Shown piece by piece: positions 10,914-37,841 of a stretch of DNA of 64,000 nucleotides. The translations under genes were made by a program, and so were the position numbers. The stretch is from Escherichia phage vB_EcoM_SA20RB. The stretch lies in sequence record OL960581; one strand, written 5' to 3'. The notes under the pieces were generated by a model. The model did not search any database. It was not told where the DNA came from and saw only the letters and a list, made by a program, of their open reading frames with translations. Numbering within the stretch: position 1 is the stretch's first letter; each line of letters begins with the position of its first letter.

Positions 10914-11594
10914 TTATTTTAATGTTACGAAAGAAGAATTGCGTGTTTCACGAATTAGAACTGATCCGTCGCGATTAATGTAATAAATTAAGCTAAATAA
11001 AGTTTGGTGTGCCAACGCATGTTCAAAACTAGTTGGGTGAGATTTCCAATCCGGAGTTTCAGCAATCCACTGGTAAATCCACCAAGGAACAGTGCAGAAT
11101 CCTGGATTTTTTCCAATTAGCTGAAGATTCGGACTAAAGTTTTCCGGAAGAGTAAATACAGACGGCTTTTCAGATTCAATAATCTCAGCTACAGCCTGTT
11201 CGAATTTTTCTTCAACAAAAGGAGTATCTTCAATCAAAACATCGGTATTTTCAGGAATTTTATCCGTTTCTACTACTTCAATTTTAATGTCAGATTTAAC
11301 CGGAGAATCAATCAGAAGTGCTGCTTCTGGATTGACTTCTTCATCGTCATATTTTAACCCCTCTGCAGCATCAGCAGCATTGATTAAGTCTTTAATAGAT
11401 AACCCATCAGTCTCTGGCATAGGTTCACTAGCGAGCTTCTGGAGGGCTTCTTCAATATCAACAACGATATTATCAAAAGATTTATTCTTTTTGACCTTTA
11501 TACCAAACTGTTCAGCATATTCAGCTAATTTAGCCTTAGCTTCTTTATTATCATCAAGAGCCTTCAGCTCTGCAATATAATCTTTATCTATCAT
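10914..11594 (-). CDS. inh: Inh, inhibitor of prohead protease
   Basis: 226-aa ORF convergent with hoc, T4 position and length. Confidence 0.8.
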   Translation of the reverse strand: MIDKDYIAELKALDDNKEAKAKLAEYAEQFGIKVKKNKSFDNIVVDIEEALQKLASEPMPETDGLSIKDLINAADAAEGLKYDDEEVNPEAALLIDSPVKSDIKIEVVETDKIPENTDVLIEDTPFVEEKFEQAVAEIIESEKPSVFTLPENFSPNLQLIGKNPGFCTVPWWIYQWIAETPDWKSHPTSFEHALAHQTLFSLIYYINRDGSVLIRETRNSSFVTLK

Positions 11595-21710: not shown

Positions 21711-22001
21711 TTATTTACGGAATGAAATAAAAGCAGCAACTGAAGCAACTAAACTGTCTTCAATATAAACTTCAATTTTTACCGGAGCTTCTGACTCAAA
21801 TTTACCTGTTACTACACCTTGGAAAATGCTTTCAGTCTGTTCTGGCTTTGAAAAATTTTCAGAAGGAAAAATTCCGAACTTTTTATCTGTTCCAAAAATT
21901 TTGATAAATTCATCGTAAACCGCTTCATTAAAAGCATTATCAGCAGGAATAACGCCTTCAACTACGAGTTCTTGACCTAAAAAGCGCAAAGAAGATTTCA
22001 T
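21711..22001 (-). CDS. Hypothetical protein (T4 alt.-3 position)
   Basis: 96-aa ORF with ATG start. Confidence 0.6.
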   Translation of the reverse strand: MKSSLRFLGQELVVEGVIPADNAFNEAVYDEFIKIFGTDKKFGIFPSENFSKPEQTESIFQGVVTGKFESEAPVKIEVYIEDSLVASVAAFISFRK

Positions 22002-22032
22002 TTTGTGTTCCTCATGTTATATCAGTAAGTCT

Positions 22033-22062
22033 ACTATAACACAACATGAGGGACTTGTAAAC
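22033..22062 (-). promoter_or_regulatory. T4 early-type promoter (GTTTAC -35, TATAGT -10)
   Basis: Minus strand reads GTTTACaagtccctcatgttgtgtTATAGT; near-identical element recurs at 37812-37841. Confidence 0.45.
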
Positions 22063-24119
22063 TACATCTTGAACTTTTTAGACATTCCGTTGATGTTAAC
22101 CAAAGAAGCTAAGATTTGAGAAACTTCGTTTTCCTCTTCTTTTGATTCTTCTACAAGGAATTGGTTAAATCCAGTCATTGGACGAACTTCACCAGTTTCC
22201 ATCAGATGATCGCCATCATATACCGATTCTTCTAATTGTTCAGAAGGAGGAACGATTGTGCCTTCGATTAGATACTTGTTATAAGCAGTTTCTTTCATCA
22301 TGTACGTGCTTACTTTATTAATCTTCAACAAAATTCCACGCGGTAAAATAACTTCAGCTTCTGATGGAAATCCTGATAAATGACCTGGAACGATAACTTT
22401 AATTCGCTCAGCTCCTTTTATTACCATACCTACGCTAGTTTCAGCATCTTCATTAGCATATGCAGAATGACTACCCATATGCATTAAATCTTCAGCATCA
22501 ACGGAACCTTCTCCTTCACCAGAAAATACTGCACCGGAATCATCTAGAGCCATATAGTTTTTACCATGCTCACCGAAGATATTTGGTTTAAGCGATGTTG
22601 ATACGAAGTTCTTGAAATAGAACATTTTATTTTCAATATTATGACGTAAAGTTTTAAAGGTAACTTCTTGTCCACGGTAAAGTGTAGTTCCTGGAGGAAG
22701 AACTGATCCTTTGGCAAAGGCAGAATCCATTGTCTCGATGTGTTTAATAGCTCGTTCCATGTATTCTTCACGGGTAGAATCTGGTTTACCCAAGAGGAAC
22801 GAGTTCATTTCAACATATGAATCTGCACAATAATCTTCAATTACATCAGACTCAGCCTGAGTCAGTCCTTTTGGAGTTACTTCGGTGCTTGCGTATTCAT
22901 ATGCCTGAGCAGCAGATTCATTAATCAATTTATAAATGCTATTCATGACAAATTGAATAATAGCTACTTTTTCGTCTGGCGTGGCTTTAGAACCTTTAAC
23001 TAAATCATTGATAATTTTCTTAATAACATCAAAGCTATTAGAAATATTAATGTCAGCGAGATCGCTTAAAATTTTATCAGTTTTATAATCAAAAAATTCT
23101 TTATTCTTTAAATATTCTTTAGAACCTTGATATGTTATATCGCTCTGCAGCTTGATAGATGGATCACGTAAACGTGCATGGGCCAATGCAATATGATTTC
23201 GGAAGCTTTCTAGTTCATAATCGTTAGATTTAAAACGAGAAGCACTTCTCATACCACCGATAGCTCCTTTGCCGAAGTTTGAACCAATCTGAATAACACC
23301 AGAGTTCATTGGTCCTTCTGCTTTATATACCGGAACTTTAGATTCAAACTCTTGATATTTCTTGGCAGCGAAGCTATCACCCTGAAGTGAAGCATCGACA
23401 GTAGAATATTGAGCTTGTGCTGCTAATCGACGACTAATTTTAGTTTTCTGAATAACAGCTTGATCCGTGCGCTTATCATTTTCTAAAGCAATAGAAGCAG
23501 CAACAGCAACAGCTTTAGGAACAGCATTACCTGTTTTAACATCTACATAAACATCACCAACCTTTGATTCAACTTTTGTGAATAACTCAGTTGAAATAGG
23601 AGGTACACCTGGAATGTCTTCTAAATTGGCATTTTTACGGTAAACCATAATATATGCATACTTTTTATCATAATCCCAAATTTCCTTTAAAAGAACATAT
23701 CGACCTGCTCCTTTAGTACGTACTAAACGGTCAGCAATAACTTGCATTTGACGAGCAGCGCCATTTGTTTTACTTTTTAGTACGCGGAATAGGCATGCGT
23801 CAATTTTATACTGTTTCATTGTTTGAAGAGCAGTATCAAAAACCGCATTAATGACACCAATTGGATTTCCACCCAAGTTTTTAAGTTTAACGAGCGATAG
23901 TTTCTCATTGACACCTATCATTACGATATGCATCATTTTATCGCCTGGCTTAACGTTTTTATTTGTATCACCGCCAGAGGTGTATGTACAAAATCTAAAT
24001 CCAGGAAGCACACTTTCTTCGCCGGCTTGAATAGCAAAAATTTGAGGTATTTTATGCTTAGGATTTAAGTTAACAACCGGCGCCGAAGCGCCGTCAAATA
24101 ATTCTGTAATAAGTTCCAT
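22062..24119 (-). CDS. Alt-family ADP-ribosyltransferase paralogue (second copy)
   Basis: 685-aa ORF; N-terminal ~230 aa near-identical to adjacent Alt; C-terminal R-S-E triad (LYRGQ, FVSTSL, SEAEVILPRG). Confidence 0.85.
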   Translation of the reverse strand: MELITELFDGASAPVVNLNPKHKIPQIFAIQAGEESVLPGFRFCTYTSGGDTNKNVKPGDKMMHIVMIGVNEKLSLVKLKNLGGNPIGVINAVFDTALQTMKQYKIDACLFRVLKSKTNGAARQMQVIADRLVRTKGAGRYVLLKEIWDYDKKYAYIMVYRKNANLEDIPGVPPISTELFTKVESKVGDVYVDVKTGNAVPKAVAVAASIALENDKRTDQAVIQKTKISRRLAAQAQYSTVDASLQGDSFAAKKYQEFESKVPVYKAEGPMNSGVIQIGSNFGKGAIGGMRSASRFKSNDYELESFRNHIALAHARLRDPSIKLQSDITYQGSKEYLKNKEFFDYKTDKILSDLADINISNSFDVIKKIINDLVKGSKATPDEKVAIIQFVMNSIYKLINESAAQAYEYASTEVTPKGLTQAESDVIEDYCADSYVEMNSFLLGKPDSTREEYMERAIKHIETMDSAFAKGSVLPPGTTLYRGQEVTFKTLRHNIENKMFYFKNFVSTSLKPNIFGEHGKNYMALDDSGAVFSGEGEGSVDAEDLMHMGSHSAYANEDAETSVGMVIKGAERIKVIVPGHLSGFPSEAEVILPRGILLKINKVSTYMMKETAYNKYLIEGTIVPPSEQLEESVYDGDHLMETGEVRPMTGFNQFLVEESKEEENEVSQILASLVNINGMSKKFKM

Positions 24120-24122
24120 GAT

Positions 24123-26219
24123 TTATCCTTGAACGAACTTGTAAGGCATGTTTGCAATATCTATGCAAGATGCAATAATTCCAAGAGATGATTCTACTTT
24201 TTGTTTAACATTTGATGAAACAAATGATGCAAAGTCAACTCTGTCTTCTATTTCAATATCACCTGTCATTGCAACTACTTCACCAGTTTCCATTAGACGG
24301 TCACCGTCATAAATTACTGATTCGGTGAGTTCTTCCGTAGTCATAACTTCAGCTTGAATGAGTTTTGTATTATTAGATGTTGTTCCGTCATTATTAGAAG
24401 CATCAGTTATTTTATTAACTTTGACCATCAATCCGCGTGGTAGAATTACTTCAGCTTCTGTTGCTATTCCTAGACTTCCTGGATATACAACATTAACTTT
24501 ATGAGCTCCATCAATTGCCCATCCTATTTGAACTTTAACGTATTCAGGATTTTCTTTATACGCTCTTATTTCGTTTGGATTAATAGTTATTCCTTCTTCA
24601 TTTTTATCAACTGTCAATTCATTACGAGCTTCTGGTTCTAAAAGACCAATACCAGCATGTGTAATTCCAAAACGTCCAAAAATGATAGGAGTTAAAGAAG
24701 TAGATACAAAATTTCTGAAATAGAACACTTTATTTTTAACTAGTGCTTCGTATATAGGAGCAGTCATGCTTTGAGCACGATAAACTGTAATGCCTTCTGG
24801 TATACGATCACCATTTTCAAAAGCTGAATCTAAGTTATTTATAGCAGATTCAATTTCTTTTTCACTCATTACATCATATCGTTCTGGATTGTAACGACCC
24901 AAAAGAAGATTATTGATGTCAGTATATCCTGAACCACAATACTCTCTAATGCCGCGCTTTTGTGATGGAGTATATTTAGAACCATCACGGGCAATAGTAA
25001 TATCAATCATTGGACCTGCACCAATTCCAGAAAAGCTATAAATCATTCTTTTAAGGAATTTAGTTTTTGCTGCGTTCCAGGAATTTTTAGTTATTTCTTC
25101 CCAGACTTCATCTGGCTGCCCTTTACGAGTTTTATTATGTTTATCAAGCCAATTATCTTTATATTCTTCAAAGAATTGATTAACAGCTGCTGCGTATTTC
25201 TCTAAACATTTTATTGAAGTAGTTGGTTCATTTTTAATCGCATTAAGAATTACATCTTTAATTTTTTCAGAAACTTCATTAACCTCACTTTTTGAAAAGA
25301 ATTTATAATCATAGTGAAGTTCATTTGCAGTTCCTTCAGCAATAATTTTTGCTGTCTTTGTTTTAGAAGCTAATGAATTAATTCCAAGCTTCATTTCTTC
25401 TGCTTCGGGAATTAAAGGAGCGGTAGCAGGTTTATTGAAATTAGCTGCGGTAGATTCATACTTCTGGAATAATTCACTTTCAAATCTAGAAGATTCTAAT
25501 GATTGACTTTGCGCAATTGCTCTACGGGAAATTTTAACTTTAACGATTACAGCTTGGTCAGAACGTTTATCATTTTCTTGCGCAATAGATGCAGCAATTG
25601 CCTCATTTTTAGTTACTTGAGCTCCAGTATCTTTATTGATATAAACATCACCAACCTTCGATTCAACTTTAGTAAAGAGCTCGGTACTAATTTCCGGAAC
25701 TCCTGGAATGTCTTCTAGTGATACATTTTTGCGATGTATAAGAATATATGCATACTTTTTATCGTAATCCCAAAGTTCCTTAAGAAGGACGTATCTGCCG
25801 CCTGAGCGACTACGGATAAGTCTATCAGCAATAAGTTGAATTTGACGAGCTTGACCAGCAGTTTTAGACTTAAGAATACGGAGCATGCAGGCATCAATTT
25901 TATACTGACGCATCGTCTGCATCGCAACAGTAAAAACTGAATTGATGTAATTAATTGGGCTTGGACCGAGACCTTTTAATTTAGCAATTGAACCTTTAGC
26001 AGTTAATGTAAAAGGAACAATATGCATCATTTTATCGCCCATTTTTAAATCGCGATTAGTATCACCTCCAGATGTATAGGTACATAAACGAAAGCCTGGT
26101 TGTTCAATTGCGTCATCAACATGAACTGAAAAAATTTGCGGTATTTTCTTCTTTGGATTTAAGTTTGTAATCGGAAGAGTAGTATCTTCGTCAAATAATT
26201 CTGTAATGAGTTCCATCAT
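24123..26219 (-). CDS. alt: Alt ADP-ribosyltransferase
   Basis: 698-aa ORF starting ATGATG; R-S-E triad (VYRAQ, FVSTSL, TEAEVILPRG); late promoter upstream. Confidence 0.88.
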   Translation of the reverse strand: MMELITELFDEDTTLPITNLNPKKKIPQIFSVHVDDAIEQPGFRLCTYTSGGDTNRDLKMGDKMMHIVPFTLTAKGSIAKLKGLGPSPINYINSVFTVAMQTMRQYKIDACMLRILKSKTAGQARQIQLIADRLIRSRSGGRYVLLKELWDYDKKYAYILIHRKNVSLEDIPGVPEISTELFTKVESKVGDVYINKDTGAQVTKNEAIAASIAQENDKRSDQAVIVKVKISRRAIAQSQSLESSRFESELFQKYESTAANFNKPATAPLIPEAEEMKLGINSLASKTKTAKIIAEGTANELHYDYKFFSKSEVNEVSEKIKDVILNAIKNEPTTSIKCLEKYAAAVNQFFEEYKDNWLDKHNKTRKGQPDEVWEEITKNSWNAAKTKFLKRMIYSFSGIGAGPMIDITIARDGSKYTPSQKRGIREYCGSGYTDINNLLLGRYNPERYDVMSEKEIESAINNLDSAFENGDRIPEGITVYRAQSMTAPIYEALVKNKVFYFRNFVSTSLTPIIFGRFGITHAGIGLLEPEARNELTVDKNEEGITINPNEIRAYKENPEYVKVQIGWAIDGAHKVNVVYPGSLGIATEAEVILPRGLMVKVNKITDASNNDGTTSNNTKLIQAEVMTTEELTESVIYDGDRLMETGEVVAMTGDIEIEDRVDFASFVSSNVKQKVESSLGIIASCIDIANMPYKFVQG

Positions 26220-26239
26220 ATCCTCTCTAGTGTTTATTC

Positions 26240-26247
26240 TATTTATA
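26240..26247 (-). promoter_or_regulatory. T4-type late promoter TATAAATA before alt
   Basis: Exact reverse-complement box about 20 nt upstream of alt start. Confidence 0.55.
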
Positions 26248-26252
26248 AAATT

Positions 26253-26270
26253 AAAGGCCCGAAGGCCTTT
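26253..26270 (-). terminator. Hairpin AAAGGCC-CGAA-GGCCTTT
   Basis: 7-bp stem at 3' end of the small ORF upstream of alt. Confidence 0.45.
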
Positions 26271-26457
26271 AATAATCTATTGGTAAGAGAGTACGATATA
26301 TTTCAAACTTTGGACCTTTTTCGTAGGCATCAAATGTTTCTGTAAATTTATTATAAGCATATGCATCTATAAATTCAATCATAATTTGTGATACAGAAGT
26401 AGAAACATCTCCACCTTCTTTTTGAGCAACGACAATTGTTTCTAAGTAAGCTTTCAT
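26269..26457 (-). CDS. Hypothetical small protein between gene 30 and alt
   Basis: 62-aa ORF with ATG start, overlaps ligase stop. Confidence 0.5.
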   Translation of the reverse strand: MKAYLETIVVAQKEGGDVSTSVSQIMIEFIDAYAYNKFTETFDAYEKGPKFEIYRTLLPIDY

Positions 26458-27917
26458 AGACCAGTTACCTCATGAAAATCACCAAATACATCCTCGAATG
26501 TATTAGCTTTAGTTTTATCTTCACGTAAACGAATCGCAATCGGAAGAAATAATTTAACGTAATCAGTGCGGCCATCAGATTTTAGCCAACCGTTGCATTC
26601 GCACTCTAGAATTTTTCCAATATAATAATTTTGGTTTTCCATAATGCGAGTACGGTCAAGTTCATGTGATTTTACACCGGCTTTATCTTTTAAGCCTGAA
26701 CCAGCATTTACTTTAATTTTTCCACACTCTGATTCAAGAATAAATCCACCTGCTTTAGTAGGGTCTTTACGGTGAGGATAAATTCCTACAATTTTTAAAT
26801 CAACATCAATTACTTCTTTAAATTTATAGAGATTTTTTGAACGAGCATTTTCCCACAATCCATCGGTATTTTTGAGAATAATACCTTCAAGACCTTGGTC
26901 AATATATTTTTTATAAATTACCTTAGCTTCATCTAGGTTATTTACTACCTGGTTTTCAATTAAAATTACTTTATCATATCCTGATGTCATTTGTTCTAGT
27001 TTAGAAAAACGTACATCATATTTTAAACGAAACGCCGGAAGACCGTATATTTCTACCAACGGGACATAATCCCAGACCTGAAACTTCATGCATTTGGCTT
27101 CTTTTTCGGAAATGGTTCCTTTTAAGGATTTATTGGCGATTCCATTAGAAGTAGTACGAGATTCCGCTACTTCGGCGAATTCTTTAGCTTTACTAATTTC
27201 AGGATAAGCATCAAAAAGAAAATCTAGGCCTTCTGGTTCCTTTTTAACTTGCTCATGGTATACCAATTCGCCATCAATTAACACACCTTCTGGATGAATC
27301 TGGCGGGCTTCAGCAGTCATTTTGATTAACTCTTCCTTAAGAAGATCTAATCCTAGATATTCATTACCAGCTCGTGATAAAAGACGAACATCATCTAATT
27401 CATCACCTCGAACTTCAGCAAAACACCGAGCTCCATCTGCTTTTAGCTGTGCAAAAGCTGGAAACTTGATATTCTTACTAATGCCTTTTTCATCATAAGA
27501 ACTTGCCAGCATTTGAGGTTGTTCAGGAATTAAACCTGGCCAAACTTTGTTTGCAATAGATACTGAAGCACCGCATTCAAGGTCTCGCATCATAACTCGA
27601 CGCAAAACTTCAACATCATCCTTTTTACCATCAGTGATATATCCAGTTAATTCCTCAATTGCAGCATTTCCAGTCAATTTCCGAGTAGCTAACGTGAATT
27701 CAATGAAGTCAAGCATATCGGTAATAGTCAGCATTCCAAAACTCTGGGTAGCAATACCAGGTTTAGGCCATTTCTTTATATAATACTGTAACCCACGAGA
27801 ATAAGTCAGACGATATACCCGTTTAAGCAATTCATTATCTTTATTCTTTTCAAGAATTGCTTGCTTCTGCTTAGTTGATCCAATAGATGCTATTTCATTC
27901 AGAATTTTAAGAATCAT
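26454..27917 (-). CDS. 30: ATP-dependent DNA ligase gp30
   Basis: 487-aa ORF; adenylation motif KADG (FAQLKADGARCF). Confidence 0.95.
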   Translation of the reverse strand: MILKILNEIASIGSTKQKQAILEKNKDNELLKRVYRLTYSRGLQYYIKKWPKPGIATQSFGMLTITDMLDFIEFTLATRKLTGNAAIEELTGYITDGKKDDVEVLRRVMMRDLECGASVSIANKVWPGLIPEQPQMLASSYDEKGISKNIKFPAFAQLKADGARCFAEVRGDELDDVRLLSRAGNEYLGLDLLKEELIKMTAEARQIHPEGVLIDGELVYHEQVKKEPEGLDFLFDAYPEISKAKEFAEVAESRTTSNGIANKSLKGTISEKEAKCMKFQVWDYVPLVEIYGLPAFRLKYDVRFSKLEQMTSGYDKVILIENQVVNNLDEAKVIYKKYIDQGLEGIILKNTDGLWENARSKNLYKFKEVIDVDLKIVGIYPHRKDPTKAGGFILESECGKIKVNAGSGLKDKAGVKSHELDRTRIMENQNYYIGKILECECNGWLKSDGRTDYVKLFLPIAIRLREDKTKANTFEDVFGDFHEVTGL

Positions 27918-37783: not shown

Positions 37784-37811
37784 AAAGTCCTCATGTTATG
37801 TCAGTAAAATT

Positions 37812-37841
37812 ACTATAACACAACACGAGGGACTTGTAAAC
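37812..37841 (-). promoter_or_regulatory. T4 early-type promoter before alc
   Basis: Minus strand GTTTACaagtccctcgtgttgtgtTATAGT; near-identical to element at 22033-22062. Confidence 0.45.

Follow-up and report, generated by a model that had tools for sequence, protein, structure and literature searches.

The 64,000-nucleotide (nt) stretch of DNA from Escherichia phage vB_EcoM_SA20RB analyzed here (sequence record OL960581; hereafter the window) carries two adjacent minus-strand genes for proteins of the Alt family of ADP-ribosyltransferases. We call them copy 1 and copy 2, in the order in which they are read. A first-pass annotation of the window, made from the sequence alone, had described a pair of neighboring minus-strand open reading frames of 698 and 685 amino acids (aa) in this family, with a late promoter box about 20 nt upstream of the first, and these observations were borne out. 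The frames lie at the positions that it gave (Table 1). Both proteins pass the curated gathering score of 23.4 bits for Pfam family PF03496, copy 1 with 129.7 bits (E value, 1e-37) and copy 2 with 73 bits (E value, 3e-20), and the box TATAAATA, which matches the T4-type late promoter consensus, occupies 26247-26240 on the minus strand, 20 nt before the first ATG of copy 1. A search for a third Alt gene within the window found none.

The stop codon of copy 1 and the start codon of copy 2 are separated by a gap of 3 nt. Copy 2 has its own ribosome-binding site (AGGA, 6 nt ahead of the start). The gap, in which copy 2 has no late box of its own, is too short to hold a second promoter, and the pair thus looks like a single transcription unit. 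Across the window, TATAAATA is found 17 times against 8.9 matches expected by chance. The intergenic match upstream of copy 1 and the hairpin adjoining it are both kept in T4 and T6, with T4 differing by a 5-nt GAATA repeat between the late box and the alt start codon. Copy 1 opens with GAGGA followed by two adjacent ATGs, at 26219 and 26216. Related records begin the gene at the second of these (MELITE), giving a protein of 697 aa, and this is likely the start that is used; T4 alt likewise opens with two adjacent ATGs, of which the records take the second. The Alt propeptide is given as 7 residues long in a review (PMC9026906) and as six in the primary paper (PMC5694885), and in view of these two lengths the true Alt start codon may deserve a look.

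Table 1. Coordinates of the alt gene pair, its parts, and its surroundings in the window
Feature	Position	Strand	Remarks
DNA ligase (gene 30)	26454-27917	-	Upstream end of minus-strand gene series, 21.7-27.9 kb
alt.1	26269-26457	-	Pfam Phage_blade
Terminator-like hairpin, AAAGGCC-TTCG-GGCCTTT	26253-26270	-	Read from sequence; closes alt.1, directly upstream of late box
T4-type late promoter consensus, TATAAATA	26240-26247	-	Intergenic; 20 nt ahead of copy 1 first ATG
Copy 1 (Alt orthologue, T2/T6 allele)	24123-26219	-	698 aa counted from first ATG; PF03496, phrog_802
Copy 1 N-terminal module	25509-26216	-	MELITE propeptide and alpha/beta N domain, to ..KISRR
Copy 1 middle region	24987-25508	-	aa ~238-411
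Copy 1 ADP-ribosyltransferase domain	24321-24986	-	R481, S506-T-S508, E588-x-E590; ends LTE-633
Copy 1 acidic C-terminal propeptide	24126-24320	-	65 aa past LTE; has YDGDRLMETGE
Copy 2 (intact Alt paralogue)	22062-24119	-	685 aa; PF03496
Copy 2 N-terminal module	23412-24119	-	aa 1-236
Copy 2 middle region	22875-23411	-	aa 237-415; disordered linker, then helical domain
Copy 2 ADP-ribosyltransferase domain	22227-22874	-	R482, S507-T-S509, E587-x-E589; ends LEE-631
Copy 2 acidic C-terminal propeptide	22065-22226	-	54 aa past LEE; has YDGDHLMETGE
Pair boundary: early-promoter-like GTTTAC-17-TGtTATAGT and leader hairpin of alt.-3	22002-22062	-	
alt.-3 (DUF5498)	21711-22001	-	96 aa; Pfam E value, 1e-64; downstream neighbor outside paralogue pair

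Domain comparison and catalytic motifs

From end to end, the two proteins align with 41% identity. The N-terminal ~236 residues are 67% identical, the transferase domains 36%, and the C-terminal tails 40%, and there is no detectable similarity over a middle of ~175 aa (residues ~237-412). The coding regions of the two N modules show 69% nucleotide identity, and the longest stretch that they share exactly is 21 nt. The first-pass annotation had thus seen the outline of this arrangement while misjudging some of its measures: the first ~230 aa are indeed shared, but are not near-identical; a segment of complete divergence does follow, but is shorter than the ~250 aa proposed; and the proteins do come together again on a catalytic core with an R-S-E triad, in a domain that is itself still diverged. 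The alignment sets Arg, S-T-S, and E-x-E of copy 1 and copy 2 in matching columns, so that the positional conservation of the triad, on which the first-pass annotation had staked its claim, is indeed present. The corresponding residues of T4 Alt are R478, S-T-S at 503-505, and E574/E576. Among 19 full-length homologues covering all types, conservation in these columns is 90% or higher. The spacing from S-T-S to E-x-E is about 77 to 79 residues in both copies, and the segment between them is among the least conserved, with 2 to 6 identities per 30 columns.

The catalytic domain of both copies fits the R-S-E clade of PF03496 that holds C3 exoenzyme, VIP2, iota toxin Ia, and CdtA, with the difference that E-x-E is Q-x-E in C3. 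The Arg and E-x-E of copy 1 align with the motifs of CdtA, and those of the copy-2 family profile align with Y-R-G and Q-x-E of a C3-like transferase; S-T-S aligns imprecisely to the solved structures and exactly among the two copies and T4 Alt. The binary-toxin enzymes (VIP2, iota Ia, and CdtA) consist of tandem transferase-fold domains, of which the N-terminal one is inactive and serves in docking. Alt proteins are not built in this way, since neither their N domain nor their middle domain has a transferase fold; searches with the N domain gave no transferase matches. In iota toxin Ia, about 40 residues lie between S-T-S and E-x-E, and by that numbering the Alt proteins have an extra variable insert of ~40 residues. 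Delivery also differs, being by phage ejection for Alt proteins and by the toxin B component for binary toxins.

One could suppose that copy 2 serves chiefly in the structure or scaffolding of the head core, or is a pseudo-enzyme, its transferase domain being no longer active on host proteins. Alt is described as a head core protein of T4 besides being an enzyme (PMC11404850), and copy 2 scores below copy 1 on PF03496 (73 versus 130 bits) and finds no solved transferase when searched as a single sequence. However, Arg, S-T-S, and E-x-E are intact in copy 2 and conserved across its family, and we regard this reading as quite improbable. ADP-ribosylation by T4 Alt has been assayed and is abolished by E577A, a substitution that the authors placed at a residue considered essential to the transferase (PMC11404850). 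We take E577 to lie within E-x-E, the second Glu of which is position 576 by our count, and the retention of E-x-E in copy 2 accordingly argues that this protein, too, would be active.

Probable head packaging and processing by gp21

T4 Alt is a head-core protein, present in ~40 copies and ejected with the DNA (PMC9026906). The gp21 prohead protease removes six residues from it at ITE-6 and 63 at LTE-619, leaving 68.2 kDa, as found by mass spectrometry (PMC5694885); the mass that we calculated for mature T4 Alt from its sequence, 68.2 kDa, is equal to the published value. Copy 1 and copy 2 both begin with the MELITE propeptide, which holds the ITE-6 site. Both also have the C-terminal L-x-E-S site, at LTE-633 and LEE-631, respectively, after which come SV(I)YDGDxLMETGE and an acidic tail, and the C-terminal propeptide of copy 1 is homologous to the 63-aa propeptide of T4 Alt. 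All nine Alt types in our alignment retain the (I/L)-x-E motifs at both ends, including the C-terminal (L/I)-x-E-S, with YDGDxLMETGE likewise conserved. After trimming, copy 1 (residues 8-633 in the 698-aa numbering) is predicted to have a mass of 70.2 kDa and copy 2 (residues 7-631) one of 69.1 kDa.

Since the two gp21 sites mapped in T4 Alt are kept by both copies, both proteins probably enter the head and are injected, which strengthens the earlier suggestion of a virion-packaged, injected enzyme. For copy 2, we infer mainly from these conserved sites that it is probably packaged and processed like Alt. It might instead be made late and left out of the head, to act inside the producing cell like ModA and ModB. 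Beyond the absence of virion data, nothing positive speaks for such a role, and copy 2 has kept the parts that it shares with the packaged T4 Alt and with all Alt types: MELITE, the complete N module, L-x-E-S, and the propeptide at the C terminus. An unpackaged copy 2 is, in our judgment, highly improbable.

Relatives of the two genes in other phages

The 4.9-kb region has 98% nucleotide identity to its counterparts in Shigella phages KRT47 and Shfl2, in phage ime09, and in many further phages. It matches 543 phage records, 376 of which hold at least 80% of it in one piece, and the usual annotation in these records is "Alt-like RNA polymerase ADP-ribosyltransferase (x2)." As judged from such matches, the window is that of a T2/T6-like Tequatrovirus. 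At the protein level, copy 1 shares 99% identity with T6 Alt and 98.6% with T2 Alt, and copy 2 shares 98% with the product of the second gene in T2 and T6. T2 and T6 (AYD82792/AYD82791, AXN58233/AXN58232) have the same gene pair in the same order, with the same lengths (697 plus 685 aa) and 98 to 99% protein identity, and their records differ only in labeling the second gene 'hypothetical protein ... similar to alt'. The pairs annotated "(x2)" in Shfl2, ime09, and KRT47 are the same two genes in order and length, with essentially no difference. The tandem pair is already known as a genomic feature, being annotated in T2, T6, and ~400 relatives, and the duplication is in the literature: paralogous alt duplications in T4-like phages, the T4 remnant included, were reported by Nolan et al. 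in 2006 (PMC1524935). Full-length and partial tandem alt duplications occur in other phage genera as well, as ORF187c/ORF188c of Aeromonas phage 44RR and ORF183c of RB49 (PMC1524935).

The positional orthologue of copy 1 in T4 is Alt itself (gpAlt, NP_049811), the head-packaged nicotinamide adenine dinucleotide (NAD):arginine ADP-ribosyltransferase. Copy 1 and copy 2 lie between gene 30/alt.1 and alt.-3/gene 54, as T4 Alt does. T4 Alt shares with both copies the domain plan, the R/S-T-S/E-x-E motifs, and the two gp21 cleavage motifs. Copy 1 and T4 Alt are 70% identical overall, a figure made up of 99% in the N module, 31 to 33% in the middle, 62% in the transferase domain, and 92% at the C terminus. 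From its sequence and position, copy 1 is the Alt orthologue, in its T2/T6 allele, with a match to T4 Alt that is mosaic. Copy 2 shares 41% overall identity with T4 Alt and has a middle region unrelated in sequence to that of T4 Alt. We considered T4 Alt as a hybrid of the two copies and dropped the idea, as T4 Alt is collinear with copy 1 throughout.

Copy 2 and the remnant genes alt.-1 and alt.-2 of T4

The T4 record has, next to alt, two small open reading frames, alt.-1 and alt.-2 (NP_049810 and NP_049809), which are described there as resulting from an old duplication of the 5' part of alt. Together they match copy 2 over its first ~116 codons, and the T4 remnant is additionally split by a stop codon, whereas the gene is intact in the window. 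When T4 DNA was compared with the window, copy 2 was covered only over its first ~350 nt and last ~20 nt. The window carries the 9-bp repeat CTAAAAAGT at 22073-22081 and 23772-23780; T4 lacks 22082-23771, a stretch of 1,699 bp flanked by these CTAAAAAGT repeats, and retains one repeat (the site is at T4 11041-11113). The protein families of alt.-1 and alt.-2 (phrog_23015 and phrog_15247) fit copy 2 far more closely than they fit copy 1. The repeat-bounded gap and the family matches together indicate that T4 descends from a two-copy ancestor and lost most of copy 2 through a short-repeat deletion, and that copy 2 is the intact form of the ancestral gene left in T4 as alt.-1/alt.-2. The CTAAAAAGT deletion refines the account given in the T4 record, in which alt.-1/alt.-2 are a partial alt duplication.

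Middle regions and substrate specificity

The alignments under the structure models and profile comparisons described here were shallow, with 10 to 20 sequences each. Profile-profile comparison (hhalign) of copy-2-type with copy-1/T4-type middle regions gave a probability below 1%, and the same method matched the copy 2 middle to that of the JS10/KM16-type Alt with 98% probability at 24% identity. In an AlphaFold2 model (predicted local distance difference test score, 77.5), the copy 2 middle is all-helical from about aa 273. Its best viral structural match is the corresponding part of the "split" Alt of an Acinetobacter phage (probability, 0.91; template modeling score, 0.51; E value, 0.36), which was the sole hit of note in the viral fold search and can be called suggestive. 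A phmmer search with copy 2 residues 237-415 against 1.84 billion representative proteins returned zero matches, its own family included, probably because the 50%-identity representative of the family carries the other middle type; the blank is uninformative on origin. The two middle domains may be very diverged homologues or may be unrelated, both being compatible with the sequence comparison.

The middle domain is one candidate for the determinant of substrate specificity. A difference in specificity could also reside in the insert between S-T-S and E-x-E, where the transferase domains differ most, since enzymes of this class touch their substrate with the loop immediately preceding E-x-E and this segment is poorly conserved.

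Distribution, alleles, and recombinants

We searched the phage collection with translated queries for each middle-plus-transferase segment and counted each cassette separately in every record. The copy-2-type cassette was present in 400 records at 95% identity or more, the copy-1 (T2/T6)-type cassette in 313 at the same level plus 34 at 80 to 90%, and the T4-type cassette in 170, again at 95% or more. There were at least three alleles at the first position of the locus, between nearly identical flanks, and at the second position there was one nearly invariant sequence or none. A copy 2 body at least 95% identical in 400 records points to strong conservation. Allele combinations assort, as in fPS-65, which has a T4-type Alt together with copy 2. 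In the database proteins P0003 to P0007, the copy 2 body sits on N modules graded from copy-2-like to copy-1-like, making them chimeras. Yersinia phage PST (segment 2805-4865) has a single alt, of 686 aa, that switches from copy 1 type to copy 2 after ~100 residues, the product that one would predict if the N-module coding regions of the two genes had recombined unequally.

These data also bear on whether the second gene is merely a spare. Copy 2 might be an active, packaged transferase that is redundant with copy 1, modifying the same targets and adding dosage or robustness, and indeed both copies have the same architecture, processing motifs, and operon, and the locus collapses readily (by deletion in T4 and by fusion in PST), as expected if one copy suffices. 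Against this stand catalytic domains that are only 36% identical and middle regions unrelated in sequence. The conservation of the copy 2 body across 400 genomes, set beside several alleles at the first position, likewise suggests distinct, separately selected functions, and we consider simple redundancy unlikely.

Proposed biological role of the pair

We consider it likely that the two genes form a late operon encoding two paralogous arginine-specific mono-ADP-ribosyltransferases, which would be built on one plan, packaged, processed, and injected, and would act on different targets. The plan common to both would consist of the MELITE propeptide, an alpha/beta N domain, a linker and helical middle, a catalytic domain of the C3/VIP2 type, an L-x-E/S site, and an acidic C-terminal propeptide. 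Both proteins would be synthesized late and built into the prohead core, where gp21 would trim both ends of each to give mature proteins of about 70 and 69 kDa. Both enzymes would then be ejected with the DNA and carry out NAD-dependent modification of host proteins in the first moments of infection. With delivery parts (N module and propeptides) in common and with differences in the middle domain and the catalytic surface loops, the two would presumably modify different sets of host proteins. What this proposal builds on was observed directly: the structure of the genes, their homology, the conserved motifs and protease sites, the match to the promoter consensus, and the deletion in T4.

Several points weigh against the proposal. 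T4 thrives without copy 2, and alt itself is non-essential in T4 (PMC9026906). The late promoter ahead of copy 1 is a consensus match. A single-sequence search with copy 2 against solved structures returned nothing, and it is profiles that link its catalytic domain to known transferases. In the open-access literature we found neither virion proteomics or biochemistry of copy 2 nor a functional study of the second paralogue. Finally, it is divergence between the copies that makes different host targets plausible.

The same observations allow a broader proposal, which we put forward tentatively and rate a little short of an even chance. The Alt locus may be a polymorphic locus for injected effectors, in which a constant delivery module is combined with exchangeable middle-plus-transferase cassettes. 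Copy 2 would then be a separately selected enzyme with a host target of its own, possibly a defense or stress-response protein, that has been overlooked because T4 deleted it. This idea draws on the three or more first-position alleles, the near-invariant copy 2 cassette in ~400 genomes, and the N-module chimeras. It draws as well on the fold of the N domain, which is also seen at the N terminus of other large phage proteins whose enzyme domains are unrelated.

About three-quarters of the records that match the locus (400/543) code for a second enzyme of the Alt type, intact and probably injected, and T4 belongs to the minority. Most matching records also have a different Alt allele, 62% identical to that of T4 in the catalytic domain. 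Known targets of T4 Alt are RNA polymerase alpha, at Arg265, and MazF. Nearly all knowledge of Alt comes from T4, and given the second enzyme and the different Alt allele in most relatives, what has been concluded about early ADP-ribosylation targets in T4 may not transfer to T2, T6, or T4-like phages used in therapy. The second enzyme could be studied in T2 and T6 as they stand.

Transcription signals and neighboring genes

Genes 54 and 48 lie on the plus strand and converge on the minus-strand series of alt genes. The hairpin that closes alt.1 is identical in T4 and T6, and the record of fPS-65 has a terminator annotated there; a conserved terminator upstream of alt was reported by Nolan et al. 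in 2006 (PMC1524935). A second TATAAATA lies within copy 1 at 24836-24843 on the minus strand, in the codons for A-I-N-N and ~715 nt before copy 2. It is found in the T6 allele and is absent from the T4 and fPS-65 alleles, and it could be there by chance or could serve as an internal late promoter for copy 2.

At the downstream boundary of the pair, the leader of alt.-3 has its early-promoter-like element inside a stable hairpin (-21.5 kcal/mol), the 3' arm of which covers the alt.-3 ribosome-binding site. The fPS-65 record has a predicted early promoter annotated at this position. A late alt mRNA reading through would hold the alt.-3 ribosome-binding site shut, and transcripts begun at the promoter inside the hairpin would lack the 5' arm. 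A 54-bp copy of this leader, 91% identical, lies at 37788-37841 on the minus strand, ahead of alc (PF17527). Mutants with C-terminal extensions of alt.-3 let T4 escape the CmdTAC defense (PMC11618068); alt.-3 of the window has the normal length of 96 aa.

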